Shown here: one piece after another, positions 1,597 through 27,163 of the stretch
Numbering within the stretch: the first letter of the stretch is position 1
Layout: every line of letters starts with the position of its first letter
Origin: Nemertoderma westbladi
Taxonomy: Eukaryota > Animalia > Xenacoelomorpha
NCBI GenBank assembly: GCA_032718475.1
Contig: JAUCBJ010007778.1
Coordinates: 1-64,000 of the forward strand
Direction: 5' to 3'
DNA length: 64,000 bases
Notes under the pieces: generated by a model
What the model saw: the letters and a program-made list of their open reading frames with translations, nothing else
Databases searched by the model: none
What the model was told of the DNA's origin: nothing
Made by a program: the position numbers and the translations under genes

Positions 1597-2150
1597 TGCG
1601 GCGAGGTGTCCGATAATTTGCGGCGAAATGGCATTCACAGTGAGACACCTCGCCGCAAAGACACCTCGCCGCACATTATCTGCGGCGAGGTGACCTGCCT
1701 GCCTGCGGCGAAGTGGTCAGGAACACTGGTCACAATATGTCCAATTTACAGCCAGAATGTGTCCGCGGAAAACGCTCTCAGAGTGAAATTTCTCCATAGA
1801 AAACAATGCTAAATTTCATTTGAAAACCGGCAGTGAAATTTTAACATTGGCATTCTAAAAATTATGCCATTAGAATCGCCATAAAATTCTGTATAAATCA
1901 ATTTGAGAATTAGAATCTCATCGTTGGGATAACTTCATAATATTAAAAATAAAAATATGCCCAGCTTCTGCTTTGAGTACTATTGGAGTTACAGCCAAAA
2001 TATGTCCGGAAATATAATCGCAGCCTGTGAAGGACAAATAGTGGCTGCACGGACACTTTCTGGCTGTAAATATGTGGACAATTTTTGGCTGAGCTTCAGC
2101 CAGAAAGTGACCAGTGTTCCTAACTGAAGTGGCAGTGCGGCGAGGTGACC
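1597..2150. repeat. Short element built of TGCGGCGAGGTG(A/T)CC motifs in both orientations, interrupted by an inverted-repeat-bounded insert
   Basis: GCGGCGAGGTG / CACCTCGCCGC copies at ~1598-1715, resuming at ~2136-2150. Confidence 0.55.
1719..2121. mobile_element. ~400-bp inverted-repeat-bounded MITE-like segment
   Basis: AGGAACACTGGTCAC (1719-1733) / GTGACCAGTGTTCCT (2107-2121) is a perfect 15-bp IR, with inner IR TTTACAGCCAGAA / TTCTGGCTGTAAA; no clear TSD. Confidence 0.6.
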
Positions 2151-2270
2151 AGCACCCCTACTGCCAGACTGCAGTATGCAGTACACAATACTGCTATATG
2201 CTCTGACAGTCTGAAACTTGTTCATGAATTTCTGAATTTATTAGGCCTGTTCGAAATTGCAATTGTCAAG

Positions 2271-2642
2271 ATGCAAAATTTAGTTAATTCAGTTAAAGGT
2301 ACAGCCCTGGGTGTTGCTGAATACCTGACACCTGTTCTAAAAGAATCCAAATTCAAAGAAACTGGAGTTATAACACCGGATGAATTCGTGGCTGCCGGAG
2401 ATTATTTGGTTCATCATTGTCCAACATGGCAATGGATGTCCGGTGATGAGTCAAAGATTAAGCAATATCTACCAAAAGAAAAGCAATTCCTGATGACAAA
2501 AAATGTCCCCTGTTATAAACGTTGTTGGCAAATGGAGTATATTGCGTCCGAGAAAGTAATTGAAGAAGACACAGGCGAGGGTGGTTGGGTAGATACCCAC
2601 CACTTCAATGATTCCGGTGGAATAAAGGCGATTGATGACCAG
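2271..2642 (+). CDS. ATG3: Autophagy E2-like conjugating enzyme ATG3, coding exon 1 (124 codons, phase 0)
   Basis: [55 protein letters not shown]...[11 protein letters not shown]...GGWVDTHH is the conserved ATG3 N-terminus; donor CAG|GTGAG at 2642/2643. Confidence 0.96.
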
Positions 2643-2673
2643 GTGAGCCATAGCCATATTCTAAATAAATATA

Positions 2674-2695
2674 TCTAATATATATAAATCTCGAT

Positions 2696-2727
<32 letters not shown>

Positions 2728-5700
2728 ATCAGCTATACAATCGAACCCATCTCGATGAAATCTCGCTTGCTATAGCTCGTTAGAAAGGTCTCGCTCTAAC
2801 TCGTTGCAACGTAATACTCAGAGTCGTCTGAAGTTCACCCGTCTGCCGCTAGAGGGCGATTTTCGTGATTTTCGGGCGAAATTTATCGAATTATTTCGGT
2901 TCTTCTATCGGTAATTAATTATTTAGAGGGCTAACATTTATCCCATCTGGTATAAAATTAACATGAGTAGATTCGCCGTGTCCCATTCTCACAAAGTTTT
3001 TATTTTATTCGAGTGTTTAATATAAATATGTATGATTATTTATTGATTAAAAACCAAATAGTGTATAAATATGTCATATTCGCCAAGCACGATCGAATTG
3101 GCCTATTCTTAGTGCTGTAGTGAATATAGGGAAGGATTTTTTTCTGTATCATAGCAACGTTAAGGTAATTATTGAACTCGCAGCTAGCTGGCTGGGCACA
3201 GATAAGGAGCAAGCAGGCTGGAGTGTTGATTGGGGTGGCGTGGGTTTGGGTTGTCTATTGCGAATTGCTCAGAGTAATTCTGCTTTCTCAATCAATGGCT
3301 GCATGGAAGGAGAGGTTTATAACATTTTTGTTTTACTGTTATGAATATTAAAAGTAAAATAATTATTTCTGTAGGCCTATACTTACTGTATTATTATTTT
3401 ATCTAATATTATACATCTAATCTCGATGAAATCTCGCTTACTATAGCTCGTTAGATAGGTCTCGCCCTAACTCGTTGCAACGTAATACTCAGAGCCGTCT
3501 GAAGTTCCACCGTCTGCCGCTAGAGGGCGAATTATTCGATAGTGAAAACCTGATCTTATAGGGTTGTTTTTAATGCTTTTGAGCTGAAACGTGGTAGCTA
3601 TATACTGCAGCATAGGCTGTATATTTCCGGAGTCACTGGGTTGTCTACAGTTCCCCAGTCTACCGTTAGAGGGCTAAATGTCTGAGAGTTAACATCTTCT
3701 CCAACTTTATTATTTACAATCCGTTTTGACTGAAACTTGGTAGGCATCTACTACAGCATAGGCTGAATCTTTACTGAGTCGCAGAGTCGTCTACAATTTC
3801 CCAGTCTACCGCTAGAGGGCGAAATGTCTGCAAGTTAACATCTTCTCCAACTTTGTTATTTATAATCCATTTAGACTGAACTTGGTAGGCATCTACTACA
3901 GCATAGGCTATATCTTTACTGAGTCGCGCAGAGTTGTCTACAGTACCCGCGTCTGCCGCTAGAGGGCGAAATGTATGAAAGTTAACATCTTCTCCAACTT
4001 TGTTATTTACAAACCTTTTAGACTGAAACTTGGTAGGCATCTACTATAGCATAGGCTATATCTTTGCGGAGTAGTAGAGTCGTCTACAGTTCCACAGTCA
4101 GCCGCAAGAGGGCGAATTATCTGATAGTGAAAACCTCATCCCATTTGGTTCTTTTTAATCCTTTTGAGCTGAAACTTGGCAGGTATCTACTACATCCTAG
4201 GCTCTATCTTTACGGAGTTGCAGAGTCCTATACACTTCCCCAGTCTACCGCTAGAGGGTGAAATGTCTGAAAGTTACCATCTTCTCCAACTTTGTTATTT
4301 ATAATCCATTTAGACTGAACTTGGTAGGCATCTACTACAGCATAGGCTATATCTTTACTGAGTCGCGCAGAGTTCTCTACATTACCCGCGTCTGCCGCTA
4401 GAGGGCGAAATGTATGAAAGTTAACATGTCCTCCAACTTTGTTATTTACAATCCTTTTAGACTGAAACTTGGTAGACATCTACTATAGCATAGGCTACAT
4501 CTTTGTGGAGTAGTAGAGTCGTCTACAGTTCCACAGTCAGCCGCTAGAGGGGGAATTGTCTGATAGTGAAAACCTCATCCCATTTGGTTCTTTTTAATCA
4601 TTTTGAGCTGAAACTTGGCAGGTATCTACTACATCATAGGCTGTATCTTTACGGAGTTGCAGAGTCCTATACACTTCCCCAGTCTACCGCTAGAGGGTGA
4701 AATGTCTGAAAGTTAACATCTTCTCCAACTTTGTTATTTACTAACGGTTTAGACTGAAACTTGGTAGGCATCTACTACAACATAGGCTGTACCTTTACGG
4801 ATTCGCAGAGTTGTATACAGTCCCCCCATTTGACGCTAGAGGGCGAAATATCTGATAGTGAACACCTCATCCCATTTGGTTCTTTTTAATCCTATTGAGC
4901 TGGAACTTGGCAGGAATCTACTACAGCATATTCTGTATCTTTACGGAGTCCTAGAGTCGTCTACAGTTCTTCAGTCTACCGCTAGAGGGTGAAATGTTTG
5001 AATATGAACATCTACACCAATTTTGTTATTTACAATCTGTTTAAGCTGAAACTTGAAAGGCAGGCGTTTTACTTCACCATAAACCCCATCTTTACCAAAC
5101 TGCAGCGCCGTCTGCATTTCACCAGTCCGCAGGTAGAGGGTGGATCTGAAAGTGATCATTTTCTGGAAATTTTGTTATTTACAATCTGCCTAAAGTTGAA
5201 ACTTGACAGTTATCTCTTATGGGGGTGGTGTTTTATTTAATGATGGTGTCTGTTCCGTATGCAGTTCTCAAATCTCCCACACATATTCATATATCATCTG
5301 CACGTGCACTAGAAAGCTGTGGCCCGAAGGGCCACAGGCTTTCTAGTGAATATTAAAAGTAAAATAATTATTTCTGTAGGCCTATACTTACTGTATTATT
5401 ATTTTATCTAATATTATACATCTAATCTCGATGAAATCTCGCTTACTATAGCTCGTTAGATAGGTCTCGCCCTAACTCGTTGCAACGTAATACTCAGAGC
5501 CGTCTGAAGTTCCACCGTCTGCCGCTAGAGGGCGAATTATCCGATAGTGAAAACCTGATCTTATAGGGTTGTTTTTAATGCTTTTGAGCTGAAACGTGGT
5601 AGCTATATACTGCAGCATAGGCTGTATATTTCCGGAGTCACTGGGTTGTCTACAGTTCCCCAGTCTACCGTTAGAGGGCTAAATGTCTGAGAGTTAACAT

Positions 5701-8700
5701 CTTCTCCAACTTTATTATTTACAATCCGTTTTGACTGAAACTTGGTAGGCATCTACTACAGCATAGGCTGAATCTTTACTGAGTCGCAGAGTCGTCTACA
5801 ATTTCCCAGTCTACCGCTAGAGGGCGAAATGTCTGCAAGTTAACATCTTCTCAAATTTTGTTATTTATAATCCATTTAGACTGAACTTGGGGTAGGCATC
5901 TACTACAGCATAGGCTATATCTTTACTGAGTCGCGCAGAGTTGTCTACAGTACCCGCGTCTGCCGCTAGAGGGCGAAATGTATGAAAGTTAACATCTTCT
6001 CCAACTTTGTTATTTACAAACCTTTTAGACTGAAACTTGGTAGGCATCTACTATAGCATAGGCTATATCTTTGCGGAGTAGTAGAGTCGTCTACAGTTCC
6101 ACAGTCAGCCGCAAGAGGGCGAATTGTCTGATAGTGAAAACCTCATCCCATTTGGTTCTTTTTAATCCTTTTGAGCTGAAACTTGGCAGGTATCTACTAC
6201 ATCCTAGGCTCTATCTTTACGGAGTTGCAGAGTCCTATACACTTCCCCAGTCTACCGCTAGAGGGTGAAATGTCTGAAAGTTACCATCTTCTCCAACTTT
6301 GTTATTTATAATCCATTTAGACTGAACTTGGTAGGCATCTACTACAGCATAGGCTATATCTTTACTGAGTCGCGCAGAGTTGTCTACATTACCCGCGTCT
6401 GCCGCTAGAGGGCGAAATGTATGAAAGTTAACATCTCCTCCAACTTTGTTATTTACAATCCTTTTAGACTGAAACTTGGTAGACATCTACTATAGCATAG
6501 GCTATATCTTTGTGGAGTAGTAGAGTCGTCTACAGTTCCACAGTCAGCCGCTAGAGGGGGAATTGTCTGATAGTGAAAACCTCATCCCATTTGGTTCTTT
6601 TTAATCATTTTGAGCTGAAACTTGGCAGGTATCTACTACATCATAGGCTGTATCTTTACGTAGTTGCAGAGTCCTATACACTTCCCCAGTCTACCGCTAG
6701 AGGGTGAAATGTCTGAAAGTTAACATCTTCTCCAACTTTGTTATTTACTAACGGTTTAGACTGAAACGTGGTAGGCATCTACTACAACATAGGCTGTACC
6801 TTTACGGATTCGCAGAGTTGTATACAGTCCCCCCATTTGACGCTAGAGGGCGAAATATCTGATAGTGAACACCTCATCCCATTTGGTTCTTTTTAATCCT
6901 ATTGAGCTGGAACTTGGCAGGAATCTACTACAGCATATTCTGTATCTTTACGGAGTCCTAGAGTCGTCTACAGTTCTTCAGTCTACCGCTAGAGGGTGAA
7001 ATGTTTGAATATGAACATCTACACCAATTTTGTTATTTACAATCTGTTTAAGCTGAAACTTGAAAGGCAGGCATTTTACTTCACCATAAACCCCATCTTT
7101 ACCAAACTGCAGCGCCGTCTGCATTTCACCAGTCCGCAGGTAGAGGGTGGATCTGAAAGTGATCATTTTCTGGAAATTTTGTTATTTACAATCTGCCTAA
7201 AGTTGAAACTTGACAGTTATCTCTTATGTGGGTGGTGTTTTATTTAATGATGGTGTCTGTTCCGTATGCAGTTCTCAAATCTCCCACACATATTCATATA
7301 TCATCTGCACGTGCACTAGAAAGCTGTGGCCCGAAGGGCCACAGGCTTTCTAGTCTAATATATATAAATCTCGATTGTCTGTCTGTCTGTCTGTCTGTAT
7401 GTTTGTCATCAGCTATACAATCGAACCCATCTCGATGAAATCTCGCTTGCTATAGCTCGTTAGAAAGGTCTCGCTCTAACTCGTTGCAACGTAATACTCA
7501 GAGTCGTCTGAAGTTCACCCGTCTGCCGCTAGAGGGCGATTTTCGTGATTTTCGGGCGAAATTTATCGAATTATTTCGGTTCTTCTATCGGTAATTAATT
7601 ATTTAGAGGGCTAACATTTATCCCATCTGGTATAAAATTAACATGAGTAGATTCGCCGTGTCCCATTCTCACAAAGTTTTTATTTTATTCGAGTGTTTAA
7701 TATAAATATGTATGATTATTTATTGATTAAAAACCAAATAGTGTATAAATATGTCATATTCGCCAAGCACGATCGAATTGGCCTATTGGTATTGAATAGG
7801 GAAGGATTGTTTTCTGTATCATAGCAACGTTAAGGTAATTATTGAACTCGCAGCTAGCTGGCTGGGCACAGATAAGGAGCAAGCAGGCTGGAGTGTTGAT
7901 TGGGGTGGGTTTGGGTTGTCTGTTGCGAATTGCTCAGAGTAATTCTGCTTTCTCAATCATTGGCTGCATGGAAAAGGAGAGGTTTATAACATTTTTGTTT
8001 TACTGTTATGAATATTAAAAGTAAAATAATTATTTCTGTAGGCCTATACTTACTGTATTATTATTTTATCTAATATTATACATCTAATCTCGATGAAATC
8101 TCGCTTACTATAGCTCGTTAGATAGGTCTTGCCCTAACTTGTTGCAACGTAATACTCAGAGCCGTCTGAAGTTCCACCGTCTGCCGCTAGAGGGCGAATT
8201 GTTCGATACTGAAAACCTGATCTCATTGGGTTGTTTTTAATGCGTTTGAGCTGAAACTTGGTAGCTATATACTGCAGCAGCAGCATAGGCTGTATATTTC
8301 CGGAGTCACTGAGTTGTCCACAGTTCCCCAGTCTACCGTTAGAGGGCGAAATGTCTGAAAGTTAACATCTTCTCCAACTTTGTTATTTACAATCCGTTTA
8401 GACTGAAACTTGGTAGGCATCTACTACAGCAAAGGCTGTATCTTTACTGAGTCGCAGAGTCGTCTACAATTCCCCAGTCTACCGTTAGAGGGCTAAATGT
8501 CTGAGAGATAACATCTTCTCCAACTTTGTTATTTACAATCCGTTTAGACTGAAACTTGGTAGGCATCTACTACAGCTAAGGCTGTATCTTTACTGAGTCG
8601 CAGAGTCGTCTACAATTCCCCAGTCTACCGCTAGAGGGCGAAATGTCTGAAAGTTAACATCTTCTCCAACTTTGTTATTTACAATCCGTTTAGACTGAAA

Positions 8701-11700
8701 CTTGGTAGGCATCTACTACAGCAAAGGCTGTATCTTTACTGAGTCGCAGAGTCGTCTACAATTCCCCAGTCTACCGTTAGAGGGCTAAATGTCTGAGAGT
8801 TAACATCTTCTCCAACTTTGTTATTTACAATCCGTTTAGACTGAAACTTGGTAGGCATCTACTACAGCAAAGGCTGTATCTTTACTGAGTCGCAGAGTCG
8901 TCTACAATTCCCCAGTCTACCGCTAGAGGGCGAAATGTCTGAGAGTTAACATCTTCTCCAACTTTGTTATTTACAATCCGTTTAGACTGAAACTTGGTAG
9001 GCATCTACTACAGCAAAGGCTGTATCTTTACTGAGTCACAGAGTCGTCTACAATTCCCCAGTCTACCGCTAGAGGGCTAAATGTCTGAGAGTTAACATCT
9101 TCTCCAACTTTGTTATTTACAATCCGTTTAGACTGAAACTTGGTAGGCATCTACTACAGCAAAGGCTGTATCTTTACTGAGTCGCAGAGTCGTCTACAAT
9201 TCCCCAGTCTACCGCTAGAGGGCGAAATGTCTGAAAGTTAACATCTCCTCCAACTTTGTTATTTACAATCCTTTTAGACTGAAACTTGGTAGGCATCTAC
9301 TATAGCATAGGCTATATCTTTGCGGAGTAGTAGAGTCATCTACAGTTCCACAGTCAGCCGCTAGAGGGCGAATTGTCTGATAGTGAAAACCTCATCCCAT
9401 TTGGTTCTTTTTAATCATTTTGAGCTGAAACTTGGTTGGTATCTACTACATCATAGGCTGTATCTTTACGGGGTTGCAGAATCCTATTCACTTCCCCAGT
9501 CTACCGCTAGAGGGTGAAATGTCTGAAAGTTAACATCTTCTCCAACTTTGTTATTTACTAACGGTTTAGACTGAAACTTGGTAGGCATCTACTACAGCAT
9601 AGGCTGTACCTTTACGGAGTCACAGAGTTGTATACAGTCCCCCCATCTGCCGCTAGAGGGCGACATATCTGATAGTGAACACCTCATCCCATTTGGTTCT
9701 TTTTAATCCTATTGAGCTGGAACTTGGCAGGAATCTACTACAGCATATTCTGTATCTTTACGGAGTCCCAGAGTCGTCTACAGTTCTTCAGTCTACCGCT
9801 AGAGGGTGAAATGTCTGAATGTGAACATCTACACCAATTTTGTTATTTACAATCTGTTTAAGCTGAAACTTGAAAGGCAGGCATTTTACTTCACCATAAA
9901 CCCCATCTTTACCAAATCTAATATATATAAATATCGATTGTCTGTCTGTCTGTGTGTTTGTCATCGGCTATACAATCGAACCCATCTCGATGAAATCTCG
10001 CTTGCTATAGCTCGTTAGAAAGGTCTCGCCCTAACTCGTTGCAACGTAATACTCAGAGTCGTCTGAAGTTCACCCGTCTGCCGCTAGAGGGCGATTTTCG
10101 TGATTTTCGGGCGAAATTTATCGAATTATTTCGGTTCTTCTATCGGTAATTAATAATTTAGAGGGCTAACATTTATCCCACCTGGTATAAAATTAACATG
10201 GGTAGATTCGCCGTGTCCCATTCTCACAAAGTTTTTATTTTATTCGAGTGTTTAATATAAATATGTATGATTATTTATTGATTAAAAATCAAATAGTGTA
10301 TAAATATGTCATATTCGCCAAGCACGATCGAATTGGCCTATTGGTATTGAATAGGGAAGGATTGTTTTCTGTATCATAGCAACATTAAGGTAATTATTGA
10401 AATCGCAGCTAGCTGGCTGGGCACAGATAAGGAGCAAGCAGGCTGGAGTGTTGATTGGGGTGGGTTTGGGTTGTCTGTTGCGAATTGCTCAAGAGTAATT
10501 CTGCTTTTTCAATCATTGGCTGCATGGAAGGAGAGGTTTATAACATTTTTGTTTTACTGTTATGAATATTAAAAGGAAAATAATTATTTCTGTAGGCCTA
10601 TACTTACTGTATTATTATTTTATCTAATAGTATACATCTAATCTCGATGAAATCTCGCTTACTATAGCTCGTTAGATAGGTCTCGCCCTAAGTCGTTGCA
10701 ACGTAATACTCAGAGCCGTCTGAAGTTCCCCCGTCTGCCGCTAGAGGGCGAATTGTCCGATAGTGAAAACCTGATCTTATTGGGTTGTTTTTAATGCTTT
10801 TGAGCTGAAACTTGGTAGCTATATACTGCAGCATAGGCTGTATTTTTTCCGGAGTCACTGGGTTGTCTACAGTTCCCCAGTCTACCGTTAGAGGGCTAAA
10901 TGTCTGAGAGTTAACATCTTCTCCAACTTTGTTATTTACAATCCGTTTAGACTGAAACTTGGTAGGCATCTACTACAGCATAGACTGTATCTTTACTGAG
11001 TCGCAGAGTCGTCTACAATTCCCCGGTCTACCGCTAGAGGGCGAAATGTCTGAAAGTTAACATCTTCTCCAACTTTGTTATTTATAATCCATTTAGACTG
11101 AACTTGGTAGGCATCTACTACAGCATATGCTATATCTTTACTGAGTCGCGCAGAGTTGTCTACAGTACCCGCGTCTGCCGCTAGAGGGCGAAATGTATGA
11201 AAGTTAACATCTTCTCCAACTTTGTTATTTACAATCCGTTTAGACTGAAACTTGGTAGGCATCTACTACAGCAAAGGCTGTATCTTTACTGAGTCGCAGA
11301 GTCGTCTACAATTCCCCAGTCTACCGCTAGAGGGCGAAATGTCTGAGAGTTAACATCTTCTCCAACTTTGTTATTTACAATCCGTTTAGACTGAAACTTG
11401 GTAGGCATCTACTACAGCAAAGGCTGTATCTTTACTGAGTCACAGAGTCGTCTACAATTCCCCAGTCTACCGCTAGAGGGCTAAATGTCTGAGAGTTAAC
11501 ATCTTCTCCAACTTTGTTATTTACAATCCGTTTAGACTGAAACTTGGTAGGCATCTACTACAGCAAAGGCTGTATCTTTACTGAGTCGCAGAGTCGTCTA
11601 CAATTCCCCAGTCTACCGCTAGAGGGCGAAATGTCTGAAAGTTAACATCTCCTCCAACTTTGTTATTTACAATCCTTTTAGACTGAAACTTGGTAGGCAT

Positions 11701-14700
11701 CTACTATAGCATAGGCTATATCTTTGCGGAGTAGTAGAGTCATCTACAGTTCCACAGTCAGCCGCTAGAGGGCGAATTGTCTGATAGTGAAAACCTCATC
11801 CCATTTGGTTCTTTTTAATCATTTTGAGCTGAAACTTGGTTGGTATCTACTACATCATAGGCTGTATCTTTACGGGGTTGCAGAATCCTATTCACTTCCC
11901 CAGTCTACCGCTAGAGGGTGAAATGTCTGAAAGTTAACATCTTCTCCAACTTTGTTATTTACTAACGGTTTAGACTGAAACTTGGTAGGCATCTACTACA
12001 GCATAGGCTGTACCTTTACGGAGTCACAGAGTTGTATACAGTCCCCCCATCTGCCGCTAGAGGGCGACATATCTGATAGTGAACACCTCATCCCATTTGG
12101 TTCTTTTTAATCCTATTGAGCTGGAACTTGGCAGGAATCTACTACAGCATATTCTGTATCTTTACGGAGTCCCAGAGTCGTCTACAGTTCTTCAGTCTAC
12201 CGCTAGAGGGTGAAATGTCTGAATGTGAACATCTACACCAATTTTGTTATTTACAATCTGTTTAAGCTGAAACTTGAAAGGCAGGCATTTTACTTCACCA
12301 TAAACCCCATCTTTACCAAATCTAATATATATAAATATCGATTGTCTGTCTGTCTGTGTGTTTGTCATCGGCTATACAATCGAACCCATCTCGATGAAAT
12401 CTCGCTTGCTATAGCTCGTTAGAAAGGTCTCGCCCTAACTCGTTGCAACGTAATACTCAGAGTCGTCTGAAGTTCACCCGTCTGCCGCTAGAGGGCGATT
12501 TTCGTGATTTTCGGGCGAAATTTATCGAATTATTTCGGTTCTTCTATCGGTAATTAATAATTTAGAGGGCTAACATTTATCCCACCTGGTATAAAATTAA
12601 CATGGGTAGATTCGCCGTGTCCCATTCTCACAAAGTTTTTATTTTATTCGAGTGTTTAATATAAATATGTATGATTATTTATTGATTAAAAATCAAATAG
12701 TGTATAAATATGTCATATTCGCCAAGCACGATCGAATTGGCCTATTGGTATTGAATAGGGAAGGATTGTTTTCTGTATCATAGCAACATTAAGGTAATTA
12801 TTGAAATCGCAGCTAGCTGGCTGGGCACAGATAAGGAGCAAGCAGGCTGGAGTGTTGATTGGGGTGGGTTTGGGTTGTCTGTTGCGAATTGCTCAAGAGT
12901 AATTCTGCTTTTTCAATCATTGGCTGCATGGAAGGAGAGGTTTATAACATTTTTGTTTTACTGTTATGAATATTAAAAGGAAAATAATTATTTCTGTAGG
13001 CCTATACTTACTGTATTATTATTTTATCTAATAGTATACATCTAATCTCGATGAAATCTCGCTTACTATAGCTCGTTAGATAGGTCTCGCCCTAAGTCGT
13101 TGCAACGTAATACTCAGAGCTGTCTGAAGTTCCCCCGTCTGCCGCTAGAGGGCGAATTGTCCGATAGTGAAAACCTGATCTTATTGGGTTGTTTTTAATG
13201 CTTTTGAGCTGAAACTTGGTAGCTATATACTGCAGCATAGGCTGTATTTTTTCCGGAGTCACTGGGTTGTCTACAGTTCCCCAGTCTACCGTTAGAGGGC
13301 TAAATGTCTGAGAGTTAACATCTTCTCCAACTTTGTTATTTACAATCCGTTTAGACTGAAACTTGGTAGGCATCTACTACAGCATAGACTGTATCTTTAC
13401 TGAGTCGCAGAGTCGTCTACAATTCCCCGGTCTACCGCTAGAGGGCGAAATGTCTGAAAGTTAACATCTTCTCCAACTTTGTTATTTATAATCCATTTAG
13501 ACTGAACTTGGTAGGCATCTACTACAGCATATGCTATATCTTTACTGAGTCGCGCAGAGTTGTCTACAGTACCCGCGTCTGCCGCTAGAGGGCGAAATGT
13601 ATGAAAGTTAACATCTTCTCCAACTTTGTTATTTACAAACCTTTTAGACTGAAACTTGGTAGGCATCTACTATAGCATAGGCTATATCTTTGCGGAGTAG
13701 TAGAGTCGTCTACAGTTCCACAGTCAGCCGCAAGAGGGCGAATTGTCTGATAGTGAAAACCTCATCCCATTTGGTTCTTTTTAATCCTTTTGAACTGAAA
13801 CTTGGCAGGTATCTACTACATCCTAGGCTCTATCTTTACGGAGTTGCAGAGTCCTATACACTTCCCCAGTCTACCGCTAGAGGGTGAAATGTCTGAAAGT
13901 TACCATCTTCTCCAACTTTGTTATTTATAATCCATTTAGACTGAACTTGGTAGGCATCTACTACAGCATAGGCTATATCTTTACTGAGTCGCGCAGAGTT
14001 GTCTACATTACCCGCGTCTGCCGCTAGAGGGCGAAATGTATGAAAGTTAACATCTCCTCCAACTTTGTTATTTACAATCCTTTTAGACTGAAACTTGGTA
14101 GACATCTACTATAGCATAGGCTATATCTTTGTGGAGTAGTAGAGTCGTCTACAGTTCCACAGTCAGCCGCTAGAGGGGGAATTGTCTGATAGTGAAAACC
14201 TCATCCCATTTGGTTCTTTTTAATCCTTTTGAGCTGAAACTTGGCAGGTATCTACTACATCATAGGCTGTATCTTTACGGAGTTGCAGAGTCCTATACAC
14301 TTCCCCAGTCTACCGCTAGAGGGTGAAATGTCTGAAAGTTAACATCTTCTCCAACTTTGTTATTTACTAACGGTTTAGACTGAAACTTGTTAGGCATCTA
14401 CTACAACATAGGCTGTACCTTTACGGATTCTCAGAGTTGTATACAGTCCCCCCCATTTGACGCTAGAGGGCGAAATATCTGATAGTGAACACCTCATCCC
14501 ATTTGGTTCTTTTTAATCCTATTGAGCTGGAACTTGGCAGGAATCTACTACAGCATATTCTGTATCTTTATGGAGTCCTAGAGTCGTCTACAGTTCTTCA
14601 GTCTACCGCTAGAGGGTGAAATGTTTGAATATGAACATCTACACCAATTTTGTTATTTACAATCTGTTTAAGCTGAAACTTGAAAGGCAGGCATTTTACT

Positions 14701-17700
14701 TCACCATAAACCCCATCTTTACCAAACTGCAGCGCCGTCTGCATTTCACCACTCCGCAGGTAGAGGGTGGATCTGAAAGTGATCATTTTCTGGAAATTTT
14801 GTTATTTACAATCTGCCTAAAGTTGAAACTTGACAGTTATCTCTTATGGGGGTGGTGTTTTATTTAATGATGGTGTCTGTTCCGTATGCAGTTCTCAAAT
14901 CTCCCACACATATTCATATATCATCTGCACGTGCACTAGAAAGCTGTGGCCCGAAGGGCCACAGGCTTTCTAGTCTAATATATATAAATATCGATTGTCT
15001 GTCAGTCAGTCTGTCTGTCTGTGTGTTTGTCATCGGCTATACAATCGAACCCATCTCGATGAAATCTCGCTTGCTATAGCTCGTTAGAAAGGTCTCGCTC
15101 TAACTCGTTGCAACGTAATACTCAGAGTCGTCTGAAGTTCGCCCGTCTGCCGCTAGAGGGCGATTTTCGTGATTTTCGGGCGAAATTTATCGAATTATTT
15201 CGGTTCTTCTATCGGTAATTAATTATTTAGAGGGCTAACATTTATCCCACCTGGTATAAAATTAACATGGGTAGATTCGCCGTGTCCCATTCTCACAAAG
15301 TTTTTATTTTATTTGAGTGTTTAATATAAATATGTATGATTATTTATTGATTAAAAATCAAATAGTGTATAAATATGTCATATTCGCCAAGCACGATCGA
15401 ATTGGCCTATTGTTATTGAATATGGAAGGATTTTTTTCTGTATCATAGCAACGTTAAGCTTAAGGTAATTATTGAACTCGCAGCTAGCTGGCTGGGCACA
15501 GATAAGGAGCAAGCAGGCTGGAGTGTTGATTGGGGTGGGTTTGGGTTGTCTATTGCTGCATGGAAGGAGAGGTTTATAACATTTTTGTTTTACTGTTATG
15601 AATATTAAAAGTAAAATAATTATTTCTGTAGGCCTGTACTTACTGTATTATTATTTTATCTAATATTATACATCTAATCTCGATGAAATCTCGCTTACTA
15701 TAGCTCGTTAGATAGGTCTCGCCCTAACTCGTTGCAAGGTAATTCTCAGAGCCGTCTGAAGTTCCCCCGTCTGCCGCTAGAGGGCGAATTGTCCGATAGT
15801 GAAATCCTGATCTCATTGGGTTGTTTTTAATGCGTTTGAGCTGAAACTTGGTAGCTATATACTGCAGCAGCAGCATAGGCTGTATATTTCTGGAGTCACT
15901 GAGTTGTCCACAGTTCCCCAGTCTACCGTTAGAGGGCTAAATGTCTGAGAGTTAACATCTTCTCCAACTTTGTTATTGACAATCCGTTTAGACTGAAACT
16001 TGGTAGGCATCTACTACAGCATAGGCTATATCTTTACTGAGTCGCGCAGAGTTGTCTATATTACCCGCGTCTGCCGCTAGAGGGCGAAATGTATGAAAGT
16101 TAACATCTCCTCCAACTTTGTTATTTACAATCCTTTTAGACTGAAACTTGGTAGGCTTCTACTATAGCATAGGCTATATCTTTGCGGAGTAGTAGAGTCG
16201 TCTACAGTTCCACAGTCAGCCGCTAGAGGGCGAATTGTCTGATAGTGAAAACCTCATCCCATTTGGTTCCTTTTAATCATTTTGAGCTGAAACTTGGTTG
16301 GTATCTACTACATCATAGGCTGTATCTTTACGGAGTTGCAGAATCCTATTCACTTCCCCAGTCTACCGCTAGAGGGTGAAATGTCTGTAAGTTAACATCT
16401 TCTCCAACTTTGTTATTTACTAACGGTTTAGACTGAAACTTGGTAGGCATCTACTACAGCGTAGGCTGTACCTTTATGGAGTCGCAGAGTTGTATACAGT
16501 CCCCCCATCTGCCGCTAGAGGGCGAAATATCTGATAGTGAACACCTCATCCCATTTGGTTCTTTTTAATCCTATTGAGCTGGAACTTGGCAGGAATCTAC
16601 TACAGCATATGCTGTATCTTTACGGAGTCCCAGAGTCGTCTACAGTTCTTCAGTCTACCGCTAGAGGGTGAAATGTCTGAATGTGAACATCTACACCAAT
16701 TTTGTTATTTACAATCTGTTTAAGCTGAAACTTGAAAGGCAGGCATTTTACTTCACCATAAACCCCATCTTTACCAAACTGCAGCGCCGTCTGCATTTCA
16801 CCAGTCCGCAGGTAGAGGGTGGATCTGAAAGTGATCATTTTCTGGAAATTTTGTTATTTACAATCTGCCTAAAGTTGAAACTTGACAGTTATCTCTTATG
16901 GGGGTGGTGTTTTATTTAATGATGGTGTCTGTTCCGTATGCAGTTCTCAAATCTTCCACACATATTCATATATCATCTGCACGTGCACTAGAAAGCTGTG
17001 GCCCGAAGGGCCACAGGCTTTCTAGTCTATATATATAAATATCGATTGTCTGTCTGTCTGTCTGTCTGTGAGTTTGTCATCGGCTATACAATCGAACCCA
17101 TCTCGATGAAATCTCGCTTGCTATAGCTCGTTAGAAAGATCTCGCTCTAACTCGTTGCAACGTAATACTCAGAGTCGTCTGAAGTTCACCCGTCTGCCGC
17201 TAGAGGGCGATTTTCGTGATTTTCGGGCGAAATTTATCGAATTATTTCGGTTCTTCTATCGGTAATTAATGATTTAGAGGGCTAACATTTATCCCACCTG
17301 GTATAAAATTAACATGGGTAGATTCGCCGTGTCCCATTCTCACAAAGTTTTTATTTTATTCGAGTGTTTAATATAAATATGTATGATTATTTATTGATTA
17401 AAAATCAAATAGTGTATAAATATGTCATATTCGCCAAGCACGATCGAATTGGCCTATTCTTAGTGCTGTAGTGAATAGGGAAGGATTTTTTTCTGTATCA
17501 TAGCAACGTTAAGGTAATTATTGAAATCGCAGCTAGCTGGGCACAGATAAGGAGCAAGCCAGGTTGTAGTGTTGATTGGGGTGGGTTTGGGTTGTCTGTT
17601 GCGAACTGCTCAAGTGTAATTCTGCTTTCTCAATCATTGGCTGCATGGAAGGAGAGGTTTATAACATTTTTGTTTTACTGTTATGAATATTAAAAGTAAA

Positions 17701-18672
17701 ATAATTATTTCTGTAGGCCTGTACTTACTGTATTATTATTTTATCTAATATTATACATCTAATCTCGATGAAATCTCGCTTACTATAGCTCGTTAGATAG
17801 GTCTCGCCCTAACTCGTTGCAACGTAAAACGTAATACTCAGAGCCGTCTGAAGTTCCCCCGTCTGCCGCTAGAGGGCGAATTGTCCGGTAGTGAAAACCT
17901 GATCTCATTGGGTTGTTTTTAATGCTTTTGAGCTGAAACTTGGTAGCTATATACTGCAGCATAGGCTGTATATTTCCGGAGTCACTGAGTTGTCCACAGT
18001 TCCCCAGTCTACCGTTGGAGGGCTAAATGTCTGAGAGTTAACATCTTCTCCAACTTTGTTATTTACAATCCTTTTAGACTGAAACTTGGTAGGCATCTAA
18101 CTATAGCATAGGCTGTACCTTTACGGAGTCGCAGAGTTGTATACAGTTCCCACATCTGCCGCTAGAGGGCGAATTGTCTGATAGTGAACACCTCATCCCA
18201 TTTGGTTCTTTTTAATCATTTTGAGCTGAAACTTGGCAGGAATCTACTACAGCATATTCTGTATCTTTACGGAGTCCCAGAGTCGTCTACAGTTCTTCAG
18301 TCTACCGCTAGAGGGTGAAATGTCTGAATGTGAACATTTACACCAATTTTGTTATTTACAATCTGTTTAAGCTGAAACTTGAAAGGTAGGCGTTTTACTT
18401 CACCATAAACCCCATCTTTACCAAACTGCAGCGCCGTCTGCATTTCACCAGTCCGCAGGTAGAGGGTGGATCTGAAAGTGATCATTTTCTGGAAATTTTG
18501 TTATTTACAATCTGCCTAAAGTTGAAACTTGACAGTTATCTCTTATGGGGGTGGTGTTTTATTTAATGATGGTGTCTGTTCCGTATGCAGTTCTCAAATC
18601 TCCCACACATATTCATATATCATCTGCACGTGCACTAGAAAGCTGTGGCCCGAAGGGCCACAGGCTTTCTAG
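2674..18672 (+). mobile_element. Tandem array of 7 non-autonomous Helitron units in ATG3 intron 1: U1 2674-5346, U2 5347-7353 (5'-truncated), U3 7354-9916 and U4 9917-12320 (3'-truncated), U5 12321-14973, U6 14974-17025, U7 17026-18672
   Basis: Units start TCTA(A)TATATATAAAT + (CTGT)n and end with a GC hairpin + CTAG; array flanked by A(2673)|T(18673) with no TSD; direct CTAG|TC junctions at 7353/7354, 14973/14974 and 17025/17026; no RepHel ORF. Confidence 0.88.
3500..18480 (+). repeat. 146-bp internal satellite of the Helitron units (about 12,12,12,11,12,8,5 monomers per unit, counted by eye), monomers carrying CCGCTAGAGGGCG or a variant
   Basis: AGAGGG core at 8341, 8487, 8633, 8779, 8925, 9071, 9217 gives an exact 146-bp period; two main monomer subtypes (GTTAACATCTTCTCCAAC and ATAGTGAAAACC). 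Confidence 0.92.
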
Positions 18673-18689
18673 TAAAAATATAAATATAT

Positions 18690-18870
18690 AAAAATTCATC
18701 CCTGTACCGGTAGGCCTACTCTCAAAAATAAATTGTAACCCGTTCTAATGAGTTTAGTTTAAAGGTTAAAATAGCGTGCCACTGTAACCTTGAACCTAAA
18801 ATAATAATTTAACATTGAGGCAGGATATTAATTCGCCAAGGCGGGATTTGCGTCCAGTTCCCAGGTTCCC
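18690..18870 (+). repeat. Dispersed unclassified repeat; related copies at ~28490-28730 and ~40955-41070
   Basis: Shared AAATTCATCC...AAAAATAAA..(G/T)TAACC.GTT block in all three copies, and AATTCGCC.AG..GGGATTTGCGT in the first two. Confidence 0.45.
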
Positions 18871-19706
18871 CCACAAACCCCCCCCTACTATATTTATTAT
18901 TTATTTTGAAATAAAGATTAAGATGTACGGTAAATAACGGCCGATGTGTATAACCAATAAAGATAATCAATAATACAATCATATCTATTCTATTTCATTT
19001 CTGTATTAACTCAGTTAACTTTAGTACATTCCTACATTCTTTCATTATTACAGTCAGTCACTGCAATTGCAAACAATCACTCATTAGGTAAGTTGGTTAG
19101 AGTACATAGAGCCACCGGCAGACCGCTAATATTTAAATGTAGACCAATAAGTTACAATGAGTGCTTGTTGATTCAGTGCCTACAAATGTGGCCTAGAATA
19201 GCTACCACTCACATAACAACCAATCAAACGTAGCTGCCCCATAACCATTGAAAGCATTCATAGACAGGCAATATTGGATGTTCACAAAATGAGTGCTTGC
19301 GTTTTTACTCTCATGTCCCTGTCTCCATTTGGTAGTTAATGTTTTGTAGTTTTTCTACTGTGTGGGGCCTACCTACGTCTTACTGTCTTACATGAAGGCT
19401 GGGCTGGTAAGCCCTAATGAAGAAAGCTGATTTTAACACACAAATGTAGGTTTTGAGTGCGTGACAGTAACACTGCTAGTCCTACTCGTTATATTTTATA
19501 TTATTTTTATATTATATTATATTAACAAAAATTCCTAACAAAAACATATACCGTTGCCGCTGACTGATCTGTCAACCTCTATCACAATCACTATGCGTTC
19601 ATTTTTTATTGTTGTAAATATATACCATTAAAATTGGTCAGTGCATAATGACGACAGAAAAAAGTAGGCCTACTGGTAGACGATTATATTATCATTACTA
19701 TTTTAG

Positions 19707-19851
19707 GTTTCGGAAATGACGTTAGATGGTAGTAAATCACATCCGGAAGCTGTTGTTGTAACTCCTCATGTTGATGAAGAAGATGATGACGAAGAAGAGG
19801 CTGCCGATATGGAGGACTATGAGGAGTCTGGTTTATTAGAGGAAGACTCAG
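19707..19851 (+). CDS. ATG3: ATG3 coding exon 2 (acidic flexible region)
   Basis: Acceptor TTTTAG|GTT; VSEMTLDG...DEEDDDEEEAADMEDYEESGLLEED matches the ATG3 flexible region; donor G|GTAAT, phase 1. Confidence 0.93.
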
Positions 19852-20501
19852 GTAATAATATTTCAGAGAAAGTCGATTCCATCAGACATCCGAATAACGT
19901 GTTTGTTATATAGACACTTATTTTGGAATATGTGATAAATACCCGAAAAGTTAACCTCGCAGCGTCGCACGTGGCGAACCCAACCGTAATTTATAATTAT
20001 TTATTATTTGGGACTTTTATCAATATTCTCGAGATATTATATTTACCGAGCGTCAGAATGGTTGATAACGAGTCGAGAGAATATTGACAAAAAAATTTAA
20101 TGTCATGTAATCTCAATCTATAGGCCTATTGCTTCCATAGTTACTGCGATTCAAATTACTGTACTCCTCAACTCCCGATGCTGCCTAACTCAATGGTTAA
20201 ATAATTTAGTGTTCTGGAATATATTTAATACGTAAGTAGAGAGCCGCTAAACTATATAAACCAATTGGATTTTTACGCCGCTCAGACATTAAATAACTAA
20301 CTTTTGAGTGTGCGAATGTTTTTTGCTCAAATTACTTGCAAACCTTTTCTACCTCGATGCTCTTTCAACACATGCTATAAATAAAAATATTTTGGTGTAT
20401 ATTCGAGCCAATGACAATAACTACTTCCGAAATTCGACAACATTTTTTAATCATGACCTAGGGTTAGGATTAAATAAATATTATTAAAAAATTAATTACA
20501 G

Positions 20502-20932
20502 GAACGGCAGAATTGGCGACTAAAGATGAACCCAGTAATGAGGCAGCCGGTGATGAGGGGGGCGAGATAGTACAGACCCGAACCTACGATCTCATGATCA
20601 CCTACGATAAATACTACCAGACGCCCCGACTGTGGCTGGCCGGCTACAACGAGTCACGGAAACCCCTCACGCAGAAGCAGTTGTACGAGGACATATCGCA
20701 GGACCACGTTAAACGTACCGTCACCATAGAACCACACCCCCATCTCCCGCCGCCCCCCATGGCCTCCGTACATCCGTGTCGCCACGCCGATGTCATGAAG
20801 AAGATTATTGAAACTGTTGCGGAGGGTGGTAAGGATCTCGCAGTCGTTGTCTATCTCGTTATATTCCTCAAGTTCGTTCAGGCAGTGATCCCAACCATCG
20901 AATACGATTATACTAGACACTTTACGTTATAG
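20502..20932 (+). CDS. ATG3: ATG3 coding exon 3 (catalytic domain, HPC active-site Cys)
   Basis: Acceptor TTACAG|GA; [21 protein letters not shown]...SVHPCRHA...[20 protein letters not shown]; exons sum to 948 nt = 315 aa plus stop. Confidence 0.96.
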
Positions 20933-22159
20933 ATATCGTTGAAAAAAATAAATTTTTTAGGAGTAAATTAACTTATATTATATGGCGTTTCTTATAATTA
21001 CTGTAACTTGTGGTGCAGATTCATATTTCTTCTTCCTTCCAATATATACTGATTCCCGAAGATTACTCTCTATAGGTATCCAGGTTTTAATTACCTTTGT
21101 TACTTATTATAAATTTATTGATAAAGTAACTTGCGTAATTCTTATATATTTTAGAAAATATAAATCTTCAAATTTTAATATCAGATCATGATTTCATTTA
21201 CAACGCTCAGATGGTTACCAGCTTCAAGGGGCGATTCACCCCACCTCCCACAGTCTTTTTTAATTAGATACCCAATAAAACATTTTATGGTGATTCCGAA
21301 TCTGAAATCAGTTTTTTATAAGTTGTTTCGTTATTGAGTCATGGCAACATTTGAAATTTTCACCCAGAATTTGTAATTTTGGTGCAGCTCTAAAATTGCC
21401 ACCAAGGAATACTATCCAACACCAATAATTTTCTATTTTCGGAATAGTCACCACAAATTAGCCCATAGGTTTCAAAACCATAAATGGGTATTTTTGAAAG
21501 ATTTCAAAAGCGTTCACTTAATTGGTTCATGTTTGCTCAGTTGTAAATAGAAGAAAATTTTAATGGCAATTTCTCGCGGTGGTTTTTTTCGGACACTTTA
21601 TTTACTTTTTCACTACTCAACCGATTTTCTTTGATGACTTAATATTTTACAATTTGATTTTAAAAAATTTATGGCGGTTTTTGTTTTAAAAGTACTCAAA
21701 CGTCGAAAATTTTGCGAGTTTTTGGTATAATAGTAGACAGCAGCATCTGTACTGCTACAGTTATACAATTTTATAACAAAACCGCATTGTGCAGCTGACC
21801 TCAACTTATTTACTTTCAATGTCATGATGATATACGATGGCTCATCGAGAAAATTATGTTCCATTTTATACGAAATATTGAGTTTATGAGTTTTAAAAGG
21901 CCAGTAACTGTTTGTAAACTAAGAGGTATGATACTTATTGCTTTGGTTGGACTTTTAAGGGAGCTTAGGATTAATGTTTCATTCTCAGGCGAACCCCAGT
22001 ACCGCAGTACCCCAGTAGCACGCGTCCTAATCACTGAAACATGGTGACTGGTAACTGAAACAGAAGGTCGTGCTACGGGCCTTCGGGGGCTTCGAACAAT
22101 TAAAATAGGCAAGCTATTTACTCTTCTGCTATATCTCATCTAGCACCTATAAATGAACA

Positions 22160-22532: not shown

Positions 22533-25262
22533 GGCTGAATAAGCACGTCTATACTTGTGTATTATTGGACACTATTTAGGCCTAAACCTCTGGCTGTATT
22601 ATGAATATATCTAACTTGTGATTACAAACTTGATAACTCATTTTATTTACTGGCGACAAGTATAATCTATCAAACAGCCGGAGAAAGGAGAATATAAGAA
22701 TGGGAACTCTTAATTTGGACCTGGGCGTTTTCAAGTCGATCAATGCCAATCCCGGAGAAACATTGGAATTATTTAATATATACGTCGAGCGAATACAACT
22801 TCTATTCGATTTGACTTTCTGGAAATCCGATGGTACTCCATATTAACCTACTGACAGAGAAAAAAAAGCAATGCTACTATTTCGTGGTGGAGATGATATG
22901 AAGGATCTTTTTACACACCTAGGACATGTGCAAACTGCAGATACCTTCGATCAAGCAGTAGGGAAGATTGTGGATGGCCTTAAATCGTCGACAAACAGCG
23001 TTGTTCAGCGAAACCCTCTTCTTTACAGGATTTCCACAAGGTACAAAATCATTTGACCGGTGGTCCAAAGAGATAAGTAATGCAGCTCGTTAAATAAACT
23101 ATGATGTATACAATTGGCAACAAGCTGCAGTAGATGCAATTATCCTGCAAACTTCGAATCCAAAACTGCGGGAAAGAGACCTACAAGAGAATATAAGTTA
23201 CAGTACAATGATCTTCTCAAACTCGGTATAGCTAAAGAACAGTCTGCCAAGGGTGCTTTACTCCTAGAAAAAGCAAACAACCGTGGACAAACAGATTTTC
23301 TAGCAACTTATGAATTAGAAACAGTTCAACGGATTGGTAAACCAAATAATGTTTCACAATTTTCAGGGACCTCGCACACATCCTTCGGGAGGAAACCAAG
23401 TAACCAACCAAGTAAACCCTGTTTCCGTTGCGCATCAACTAGATGTTCTAAATTGTGTTCAATTCGATTATGGCTCGAGGTATCCACCAAAACTAGAATT
23501 TAATGAAAGATACAAAGAATTGTTTGCAGTAGAAGATCACCATGATATATATGTTAATCGTGTGATCGAGGAATCCCTTCCCCAAGCTATTACACTGGAA
23601 ATGGTCAAACATGAAACTACCAAAGACCCTGAACTTCAAACTCTTATAAAGGATATTTGTGTTAATAAGTTTTGTACAACTTTTCAAAAACATTTTTCTA
23701 GAATATTCTCTGAGCTCACAATCATTGATGGCATTGTTATGAGGAATAACCAATTTGTTATTCCAGCCTCCCTGCAGGCGGACATCATTGGTCTTGCCCA
23801 CGAAGGCCATATGGGACAAGACAAAACCATATTATCATTTTTTCGTCAATCATGTTGGTTCCCTGGAATGACAGCTGCTGTTGCAGACTACGTTAAAACG
23901 TGCATTTTAGCATCCACTAAGCACACCTTTCCAGAACCTCTGAAACCTAATCTATTGCCAAATCGGCCATTGCAGAAACTGCATGCAGATTTTAAAGGTC
24001 CCATAGGGTCTCAGTATTACCTCCATTTGATCATTGACCAGTATTCAAAGTACCCTGAGGTTGACATTGTCACATCTACCAGCTTCACAAAACTAGAACC
24101 ATGCTTAGATCGTGTGTTCGCCATTCATGGTATTCCCGACGAGTTAACTACAGATAATGGACAACCTGATGGTAGTAATTAATTTTTAAAGTACTCTAAA
24201 CGAATGGGGTTTAAACATACTCCAGTGACACCCAGAGACCCCCAGTGCAATGGGTTCGCTGAGAGTTTTGTCAAGGTACTGTGCAAGATAATACAAACGC
24301 TGTCTGTGAAGGAAAAAAAAGTCGATCTCCAGCTGAACTACTTTTTAACCGGAAAATGAAAACCAAACTGCCCAGTTTTGCTCCACTCTCTGAGTCTGCT
24401 GATCTCAAAGAGATTCGTGCTGAACCTGATGCCAAGAAGTTAGCAAAAACTTCAGTTCGACAAGCACCACAGGGCAACATATAAAACTATCAAGAGAGAT
24501 ATGATACGGTCCTTATCGAACAAACAAAGCCATCAATTAAACCTCCTTTTGATCCTAGACCTTACCATGTAACGCAGGTCAAGGGGAGTCAGTTGACAGT
24601 GCAACGTGGTGAAAGTATTCTAAAACGCAGTAAAAACCATATCAAAGTTGTCCAGCGCCGCCCAGAACATTTAGAACCATCCTGGACCAAGACCAACCCA
24701 ATGGAGCCATGGGATTTCAATAGCAACGATATAGAATGTTCTACAACCAACATGCGAGTCCCTCAGACCGTCCCTAATAATCCCATAGAACCTCCTCTAT
24801 CAACATCTGTCTCAGATGCACCGGATGTAGCGAGCTCATCTCAGGTGACAAAGAACTATCCACTGCGCAGCCATGATGCCCTACTGAGATGGAACCCGGA
24901 ACTTAACTCTGGTTCGCCCATACAGTATTACCGAATAAAATATAGGCCGTTTATCTAGAACTATTTTATAAACAGATAGTGAAGTGGAAAGAAAATTATA
25001 GAAAGAAACCTATTTTAGAATACATTAAAAACTATTTTAGAAAGAAAGCTATAGAAAGAAAACTATTTTATGATACATTAAAAATTACTAAGTATACAAC
25101 AAACTGAGATAAACTTTCAGTTTGAAACTGTAAAGGAAGTATGTACTAGACTGACTTACCGGTATGAGTGTACTGAGATAGGGCTGAATAAGCACGACTA
25201 CTGTTCTACTTGTGTATTATTGTACACTATTTAGGCCTACATAAACCTCCGGCTGTATTATG
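22533..25262 (+). mobile_element. Degenerate Ty3/Gypsy LTR retrotransposon (LTR remnants, PBS, broken gag and integrase; PR/RT not seen)
   Basis: Direct repeats GGCTGAATAAGCACG...GGCTGTATTATG at ~22533-22602 and ~25182-25262; PBS-like TGGCGAC at 22651; integrase motifs AHEGHMG, LHADFKGP, DQYSKYPEV and TDNG in ORF 23334-24182. Confidence 0.8.
23510..24660 (+). pseudogene. Gypsy integrase region (H2C2 + rve), disrupted by stops and frameshifts
   Basis: IPASLQADIIGLAHEGHMG...WFPGM...HADFKGP...HGIPDELTTDNG*...PQCNGFAESF...SPAELLFNRKMKTKLP. Confidence 0.8.
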
Positions 25263-26464: not shown

Positions 26465-27163
26465 TAAAAGTTTCTCGTCCGTGGAGCCTTCGCACAGCAC
26501 GAGACTCGGCTCCGATAAAGGTGAACCCGAGAAAGCTGTAATCCGAGTAGGCCTACTTGTTTGGTTTACTATTACTTTCGTTAGCTTGCCTACAGTATAC
26601 CTGTTCTATTTAAGCAATTATTGTAGGTCACTACTCCAAATTTCAGATAAATCTGATTGGTTCTATTACAGCTACTTTTACGTTTCTGTCAATTCGCCCC
26701 CTAGCGGCAGCCAGAGGAACTAAAGTCTGTATTTGTGTAGACTTTCTAATTCAGCAATGCTCATAGATCACTCCTACCACATTTCAGATGAATCGGATGG
26801 TTGGTTCTATAAGTACAGCTATACTTCAACGTTTCTGTCAATTCGCCCCCTAGCGGCAGACAGAGTAACCGTATAATTCCGTCCTTGTGTATAATTTCTA
26901 AACTTTTGATAGACTACATGTGTACAGAGTTTGGTTCCATTTCATCCATGATTGACCGCCTTATTTCGGTTTTTATCATAAGTCTGAAACTACAGGTGTC
27001 GAGTGACAGACTGCCTGATTTTTTTTACCAAACTTCAGATTCTTTCTAAACTTTTGACGGACTACAAAAGTACCAAGATTGGGACGACGACGATGACAGA
27101 CAAATCTTTAATGGTACAGTACTCCTACGCTAAGGCTTCACTTACTTCGTGGCTCGCCCCACA
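26465..27163 (-). mobile_element. DINE-1/Helentron-associated-like non-autonomous element with two ~149-bp repeats containing CTGCCGCTAGGGGGCGAATT (minus strand)
   Basis: Termini shared with the 34150 and 40297 copies (CGTG.CTCGCCCCACA; CGTGG.G.CTTCGC.CAGCACG); AATTCGCCCCCTAGCGGCAG at 26691 and 26840. Confidence 0.6.

Follow-up and report, generated by a model that had tools for sequence, protein, structure and literature searches.

Helitrons are recognized by a 5′ TC, a 3′ CTRR, a palindrome of 16–20 bp lying ~11 bp upstream of the 3′ end, and insertion between A and T (PMC4067079; PMC4778049). In mammals, other mobile elements, exemplified by B2 SINEs (short interspersed elements), spread 33/34-bp CTCF sites composed of two motifs (M1+M2), with a single site in each retro-element and binding demonstrated through chromatin immunoprecipitation (PMC3368268). 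Transposon-borne CTCF sites, tandem CTCF arrays and the internal repeats of Helitrons are all already known, but separately. Here, we describe a stack of seven head-to-tail non-autonomous Helitron units (2674–18672, + strand) in the first coding-region intron of the autophagy gene ATG3 of the xenacoelomorph Nemertoderma westbladi, in which the internal 146-bp repeats carry a two-part CTCF-like site. The window, i.e. the whole stretch of DNA analysed, comprises 64,000 nucleotides (positions 1 to 64,000 of the forward strand of contig JAUCBJ010007778.1, assembly GCA_032718475.1). Like the mammalian transposons, this Helitron is a mobile element that spreads a two-part site; unlike them, it is a DNA element of an invertebrate, with 5–13 predicted sites per copy. 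Judging from the sequence, we tentatively favour the reading that these sites are bound by the host CTCF and are likely kept for the benefit of the element, not for that of ATG3. A literature search, with most subscription papers outside its coverage, returned no description of CTCF sites in Helitron internal repeats.

In 2023, Shi et al. reportedly found that Helitrons mark supersized sperm loops in the frog Xenopus tropicalis, where Helitron repeats would likewise be tied to chromatin loops, and this work may overlap with the present finding. In C. elegans, the PATC insulators derive from Helitron minisatellites and act by a 10-bp DNA curvature, with no protein motif (bioRxiv 10.64898/2026.08.08.743475). 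The Helitron monomers described here differ from PATCs in this respect, as a search for the 10-bp curvature signal found it in none of 15 consensus monomers. In amphioxus, CTCF motifs are described at domain boundaries and not in repeats (PMC10013865).

The two-part CTCF-like site

The preliminary description of this locus presented positions 3500–18480 as a single mobile array of co-oriented CTCF-like motifs with an exact 146-bp period. Allowing up to three mismatches, we identified 78 matches to the core CCGCTAGAGGGCG in 2600–18700, spanning 2846–18468, compared with a mean of 1.4 and a maximum of 5 in 100 base shuffles of the region. All 78 indeed lie on the + strand; 37 of them are exact, 28 carry one mismatch, 7 carry two and 6 carry three, so that 65 of the 78 differ from CCGCTAGAGGGCG by at most one letter. 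Scored by comparison with a consensus and not with a weight matrix, full agreement with the CTCF core consensus quoted in that description holds for 37 cores and fails for the other 41. The period was borne out as well, since 46 of the 65 spacings between neighbouring cores within runs are exactly 146 bp, with 147 bp in 10 cases and 148–152 bp in 9. The extent, in turn, had to be redrawn: 77 of the 78 cores fall within 3500–18480, but the true feature is 2674–18672 and consists of seven element units rather than one array. Tandem Repeats Finder (TRF) reports seven separate 146-bp arrays, three of them also with a 439-bp higher-order period, and each unit contains a run of 4–12 monomers, with core-to-core gaps of 285–671 bp between the runs. 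Tandem duplication by itself accounts for the common orientation and the constant period, neither of which requires selection.

The resemblance to a CTCF site goes further than the preliminary description recognized, as the core is preceded by a match to the upstream motif at the canonical gap, although binding is a prediction. In vertebrates, the core is read by CTCF fingers 3–7, and an upstream CTGCAGTTCC-like motif is read by fingers 9–11 at 13–15% of sites (PMC12885311; also PMC3368268). When the match to this upstream motif was scored at gaps of 0–124 bp before the 78 cores, a single peak emerged at a gap of 8 bp, with a mean score of 7.9 out of 10 over all 78 cores versus 4.6 at the next best gap. 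The consensus of this upstream slot, CTACAGTTCC, agrees with the published CTGCAGTTCC at 9 of 10 positions and has the same orientation as the core. Because the array was delimited without reference to the upstream half-site, the latter is evidence independent of the core. When the non-core part was shuffled, a 9-of-10 match was reached in 2 of 200,000 cases at gap 8, and in 30 of 200,000 when gaps of 5–10 bp were considered. An example is the site at 3499–3529 (+ strand), in which the upstream motif (3499–3508) is separated by an 8-bp linker from the core (3517–3529), and the same layout recurs at the other cores. Variants of the upstream slot each deviate from the published motif at different letters, a pattern that would fit descent from a perfect match.

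The human IL3 insulator has a CTCF site with the same geometry of upstream motif, 8-bp gap and core, yet it is single-copy, conserved across mammals and of demonstrated function (PMC12885311), whereas the Helitron sites are predicted. A second half-site at a CTCF-specific distance (chance about 3e-5) would be unexpected if the motif served as an iteron-like loading site for another factor, such as the RepHel transposase of the partner element or a different zinc-finger protein of the host. We consider such a factor unlikely, also because the repeat is present in elements with different ends, but a further conserved block of the monomer, discussed below, speaks in its favour.

The Helitron carrier in the ATG3 intron

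The stack begins 31 bp after the splice donor of the first coding exon of ATG3 and is inserted between a host A (2673) and a host T (18673), with all units on the + strand. Unit 1 (2674–5346) is full length and comprises a 5′ TC, a (GTCT)n microsatellite (2696–2727), a head site at 2846, monomer types in the order ABCDECDEFGH, a hairpin and a terminal CTAG. Unit 2 (5347–7353) is truncated at its 5′ side, follows the same monomer order and retains an intact 3′ end. Unit 3 (7354–9916), in which type B monomers form a homogeneous run, and unit 4 (9917–12320) are 3′-truncated at the same base, and unit 4 is part of a 1919-bp exact duplication within the stack (offset 2404), which could be either recent or an assembly fault. 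Units 5 (12321–14973), 6 (14974–17025) and 7 (17026–18672) are full length, the monomer run being shorter in unit 6 and shortest in unit 7. The order ABCDECDEFGH is thus common to units 1, 2 and 5, with other orders in units 3, 4, 6 and 7.

The preliminary description had suggested a rolling-circle carrier, and the termini support this. A 5′ TC is present in six of the seven units (the exception being the 5′-truncated unit 2), followed by an AT-rich end and the GTCT microsatellite, while five of the seven close with a hairpin and CTAG. In the last of these (18633–18672, + strand), the inner 19-bp palindrome (18644–18662) stops 10 bp from the end, and units 1, 2, 5 and 6 are closed likewise. 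The predicted stability of the terminal hairpin (-18.8 kcal/mol, z -6.8) was equalled in none of 200 shuffles. The outer junctions read A–TC and CTAG–T, and four of the inner junctions contain CTAG, three of them joined straight to TC. The 5′ TC, the 3′ CTAG, the palindrome ~10 bp from the end, the insertion between A and T without target duplication and the precise CTAG–TC junctions are all shared with canonical non-autonomous Helitrons and Helraiser, from which the stack differs in its non-identical units with varying monomer runs and in its internal repeats with a CTCF-like site (PMC4067079; PMC4778049). No autonomous partner of the element was found. No open reading frame of at least 100 aa was found within 2674–18672, and Rfam returned no match in 2000–21000. 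The junctions, A–TC and CTAG–T, depart from those of the Helentron/HINE/DINE-1 class, whose elements use a T-rich or TT target. A scan for inverted repeats that covered the 5′ half of unit 7 found none near the 5′ end.

The units differ from each other by 0.1–2.4% (97.6–99.9% identity among the heads and 99.1–99.7% among the tails). A single rolling-circle concatemer would yield identical units, and this origin was rejected given their divergence and their differing monomer orders; we infer instead repeat insertion at the A–T junction combined with unequal exchange. Insertions that recur at a single site have been described as giving rise to tandem transposons, in an account whose accessible text does not name Helitrons (PMC5932611).

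Sequencing reads were compared over the flanks of the stack only (2150–3400 and 18625–19900). On the element head, summed contig depth amounts to 17,820–211,392 in the DNA-like run X1, versus 30 on the exon, and to 8,767–115,247 in run X2, likewise DNA-like, versus 16; these values are rough and do not represent copy numbers. Head depth hundreds to thousands of times the exon depth in both runs shows that the element, a young one, forms a large multi-copy family. In X1, eight contigs depart from it at one and the same 3′ base (behind 18673) and run on into other flanks beginning with T. An empty allele of the stack was not seen among the matches listed, beyond which there are 226 further loose ends and 3111 further pieces. 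The unique flank contig of X1 stops at 2674, the last base common to the filled and the empty allele, while that of X2 runs to 2687 inside the element, which hints, if weakly, at the presence of both alleles in X1. Run X5 (organism B) contains pieces of the element head (2749–3400) at a depth of 3–7 and no ATG3 exon; these may stem either from a relative carrying the element or from traces of host DNA.

The first coding exon of ATG3 (2271–2642, + strand; 124 aa; donor at 2643) matches Pfam PF03987 with an E-value of 1.8e-13 and ATG3 proteins with 68–81% identity; the second (19707–19851, + strand) is supported by its translation and by loose ends in run X4, which show exon 1 sequence ahead of it and exon 3 sequence behind it; and the last (20502–20932, + strand) matches PF03987 with an E-value of 4.1e-44. 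The intervening intron 1 (2643–19706) is mostly filled by the stack. Run X4, labelled 'DNA?', shows spliced junctions, as RNA would: its contig over exon 1 runs up to the donor and passes from there into exon 2. Intron 1 is thus spliced in X4, whose individual may or may not carry the stack. Searches with the ATG3 exons returned 68–82% identity to arthropods, molluscs and chordates alike and no close relative; the best 120 matches of either search contained no named cnidarian, sponge or ctenophore, and one aphelid match had 43% identity. These matches point to a bilaterian invertebrate without indicating a phylum. At 2243–2245, a deep X4 contig begins (at 2245) directly after an AG and 26 bp before the start codon, where an upstream exon or a trans-spliced leader appears to join ATG3. 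Elsewhere in intron 1, summed depth over the segment 18797–18882 is very high in each of the four runs compared, which marks it as a small high-copy repeat, and by eye a similar sequence lies near 28690–28720.

The preliminary description saw in the array, above all, a possible directional insulator or loop anchor delivered into a housekeeping gene, which here would have been co-opted by the host to regulate ATG3. If bound, 78 co-oriented two-part sites within 16 kb would constitute a strong anchor; in vertebrates, sites with the upstream motif and tandem copies give the best insulation (PMC12885311), and the intron is tolerated and spliced. However, the high similarity of the units, the exact 1919-bp duplication, the absence of excess conservation of the core (see below), the weak hint of an unfixed site and the multi-copy nature of the family all argue against this role, which we regard as quite improbable. 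With a family so abundant, insertion into a housekeeping intron needs no special cause, and the notion of a tuned cassette delivered to this gene is not supported, the orientation and period being explained by tandem duplication.

Conservation and recurrence of the site

The motif had been described as better conserved than the remainder of the monomers, but when this was checked, the difference amounted to a trend at best (p 0.05–0.29). With ten monomer types each weighted once, identity is 0.926 in the core and 0.867 in the rest, a difference with p 0.074 against random columns and p 0.051 by the Mann-Whitney test that places the core ninth among 146 windows, while another block, CTGAAACTTGGTA, outscores the core with 0.948. 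Parsimony over 49 distinct monomers assigns 1.15 changes per column to the core, 1.13 to the CTGAAACTTGGTA block, 1.6 to the upstream slot and 1.43 to the rest. This block, TGAAA(C/T)TT at monomer positions 68–82, matches the CTCF-like core in conservation and reappears in tandem repeats of transposons that otherwise show little resemblance, namely at 26645 of the window, in the metagenome families L001–L128 and, by eye, in the oyster repeat CL1. Its sharing among these repeats implies that at least one signal in them is unrelated to CTCF, and it is a point in favour of the motif being read by another factor, as is the fact that no host CTCF gene was seen.

A second pair of CTCF-like cores, 149 bp apart, lies on the - strand at 26695–26874 in a different element (~26460–27165) whose ends are not those of a Helitron. 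The monomer of this element aligns colinearly with that of 146 bp, and the similarity persists when the motif is left out (z 5.0, reached in 1 of 500 shuffles). Overall, the two monomers are 62% identical, with 12 of 13 positions shared in the core, 8 of 10 in the upstream slot, 13 of 15 in the TGAAA block and 52% in the rest; at the other core of this element, the upstream slot scores 6 of 10. A further non-autonomous element (40338–40931), with 54-bp inverted repeats (94%) and a GTCY microsatellite, has its CTCF-like core (40454) in the opposite orientation and without the upstream motif; by eye, its ends resemble those of the ~26460–27165 element and of one starting at 34150.

Metagenome contigs were scanned for two cores 138–168 bp apart, which yielded at least 128 stretches (about 1400 estimated); viral contigs gave one match. 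Among 211 distinct matched metagenome units, 148 have a period of 145–147 bp within the allowed 138–168 bp. As many as 202 of the 211 belong to two mutually similar families from few assemblies and hence are not independent counts; the other 9 are singles. The L001–L128 families (e.g. L031, L008 and L026) consist of alternating dimer monomers of 145–147 bp with a perfect core in each, and family 0 terminates in a long inverted repeat, unlike the ends of Helitrons. Homology of these families to the window monomer outside the motif was unsupported (z ≤2.3). The singles L002, L029 and L086 represent other kinds of repeat; L006 and L129 contain no tandem repeat and were set aside, and TRF found none of ~146 bp in L027, L074 and L080.

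The Cg_HINE Helentrons of the Pacific oyster share with our Helitron a microsatellite near the 5′ end and central repeats of 138–181 bp (147 bp in CL6), and CL1 has, by eye, the TGAAACTT block of the Helitron monomer in common (PMC7492417). Oyster Helentrons and DINE-1 bear Helentron ends, with subterminal inverted repeats and a T-rich target, in place of the Helitron ends seen here, and the oyster arrays also differ by the lack of the core (PMC7492417). These 13 clusters were assembled by their authors without regard to CTCF, which the accessible text does not mention (PMC7492417), and in 3.35 million characters (first 400 letters per cell) six 10-mers of the core gave no hit and six 8-mers gave 9 scattered hits. 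The CTCF-like core is thus recurrent but not general in such repeats.

Several of these results weigh against the favoured reading, in which the site is kept for the element's benefit. By parsimony, the excess conservation of the core is not significant (p 0.29; 0.05–0.10 against G/C-matched columns), the upstream slot changes at about the background rate, and its position 3 is mostly A (56 of 78), where the published letter is G. In the two metagenome families, the upstream motif is absent (≤5 of 10 at gap 8), and the core motif decays like the rest (0.875 versus 0.872 over 192 slots and 0.849 versus 0.847 over 162), as measured in motif slots that were not used for selection, a choice tilted against perfect motifs. 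These families and the 26.7-kb element were found through the core, and so its presence in them is not an unbiased test. The oyster arrays, in turn, spread without the core, which is therefore not needed for such repeats. Finally, CTCF sites of Drosophila are reported to lack the upstream motif, which, as suggested in the same source, is perhaps restricted to vertebrates (PMC12885311).

Much of this evidence would also suit a neutral passenger, that is, a host CTCF site (or an element with one) that was captured and then multiplied by duplication and rolling-circle spread, and that may well bind CTCF without conferring any advantage. Helitrons are known to capture host DNA (PMC4778049), neither the core nor the upstream slot significantly exceeds the conservation of the monomer, the motif decays at the background rate in the metagenome families, and the oyster arrays manage without it. 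We see this as a distinct possibility, ranking close behind the favoured reading. What such a passenger explains less well is that six core positions (3 and 7–11) are invariant in all 78 copies though the monomer types are on average only 79% alike, that the core, the upstream slot and the TGAAA block rise above the 52% background between two different elements, and that cores recur at 145–147 bp in repeats without detectable similarity outside the motif, albeit repeats found by that motif.

The remainder of the window contains an intronless UDP-glucuronosyltransferase gene (42019–43665, + strand; 548 aa; Pfam UDPGT, E 4.4e-76), for which a search at E 1e-60 gave no match, a FAM174-like membrane protein gene, probably with two exons (30220–31349, - strand; Pfam DUF1180), a BEL/Pao-type long terminal repeat (LTR) retrotransposon with long gag-pol frames (56574–61959, - strand) and a decayed LTR element with an integrase (22700–24960, + strand).

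Possible consequences of CTCF binding

Under the favoured reading, the ancestral repeat unit would have held one site for zinc fingers 3–7 (core) and 9–11 (upstream motif), and its tandem duplication would have produced the common orientation and fixed period. The stack itself may have grown by repeat insertion at an A–T junction recreated by the element's own 5′ T, together with unequal exchange. The period of 146 bp corresponds to 13.9–14.0 helical turns, so bound sites of ~33 bp would recur every 14 turns on the same face of the helix, leaving ~113 bp between them. This distance is too short for a nucleosome, and a fully bound run would hence exclude nucleosomes, while alternate binding would permit one nucleosome per 292 bp. 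The chromatin of an occupied run may thus be open, withstanding both methylation and repressive marks and remaining accessible to a partner RepHel transposase, with any loop-anchor or barrier effect on ATG3 being a side effect. A comparable role was proposed by Schmidt et al., in whose account CTCF shields transposons from repression (PMC3368268).

The preliminary description had also offered the array as a possible nucleosome-phasing cassette, which would place one nucleosome on each monomer. A period of 146 bp does equal the length of the core particle, as well as 14 helical turns, and 145–147 bp is the prevailing period among the distinct metagenome matches (148 of 211). However, a 10.4-bp AA/TT/TA signal was detected in none of the 15 consensus monomers (lowest p 0.14). 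Moreover, nucleosome repeats of animals include linker DNA and exceed about 160 bp, and a period of 146 bp, in which nothing is left for the linker, cannot represent one. Nor can bases occupied by CTCF be wrapped in a nucleosome at the same time. We therefore consider phasing very improbable, and this part of the preliminary description is not supported.

A broader scenario, which we put forward as doubtful, would have invertebrate DNA transposons repeatedly building cassettes of CTCF sites 14 turns apart as an open-chromatin shield. This Helitron would then have seeded hundreds or thousands of loci with full 11-finger sites, every such locus acting as a directional cohesin block, and the binding mode of fingers 9–11 would predate vertebrates. 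CTCF is bilaterian-specific (PMC7535936).

Should CTCF not bind, the locus would represent an ordinary Helitron stack. Otherwise, the finding bears on two questions about CTCF in invertebrates, namely whether the upstream motif is among the sequences it reads and whether it forms loops or boundaries as in vertebrates. A multi-copy family whose elements each have 5–13 two-part sites, with natural variation in both halves of the site and probably both filled and empty alleles, would offer a test set for invertebrate CTCF, and the same family would allow the proposal that CTCF sites help transposons evade silencing to be put to the test.

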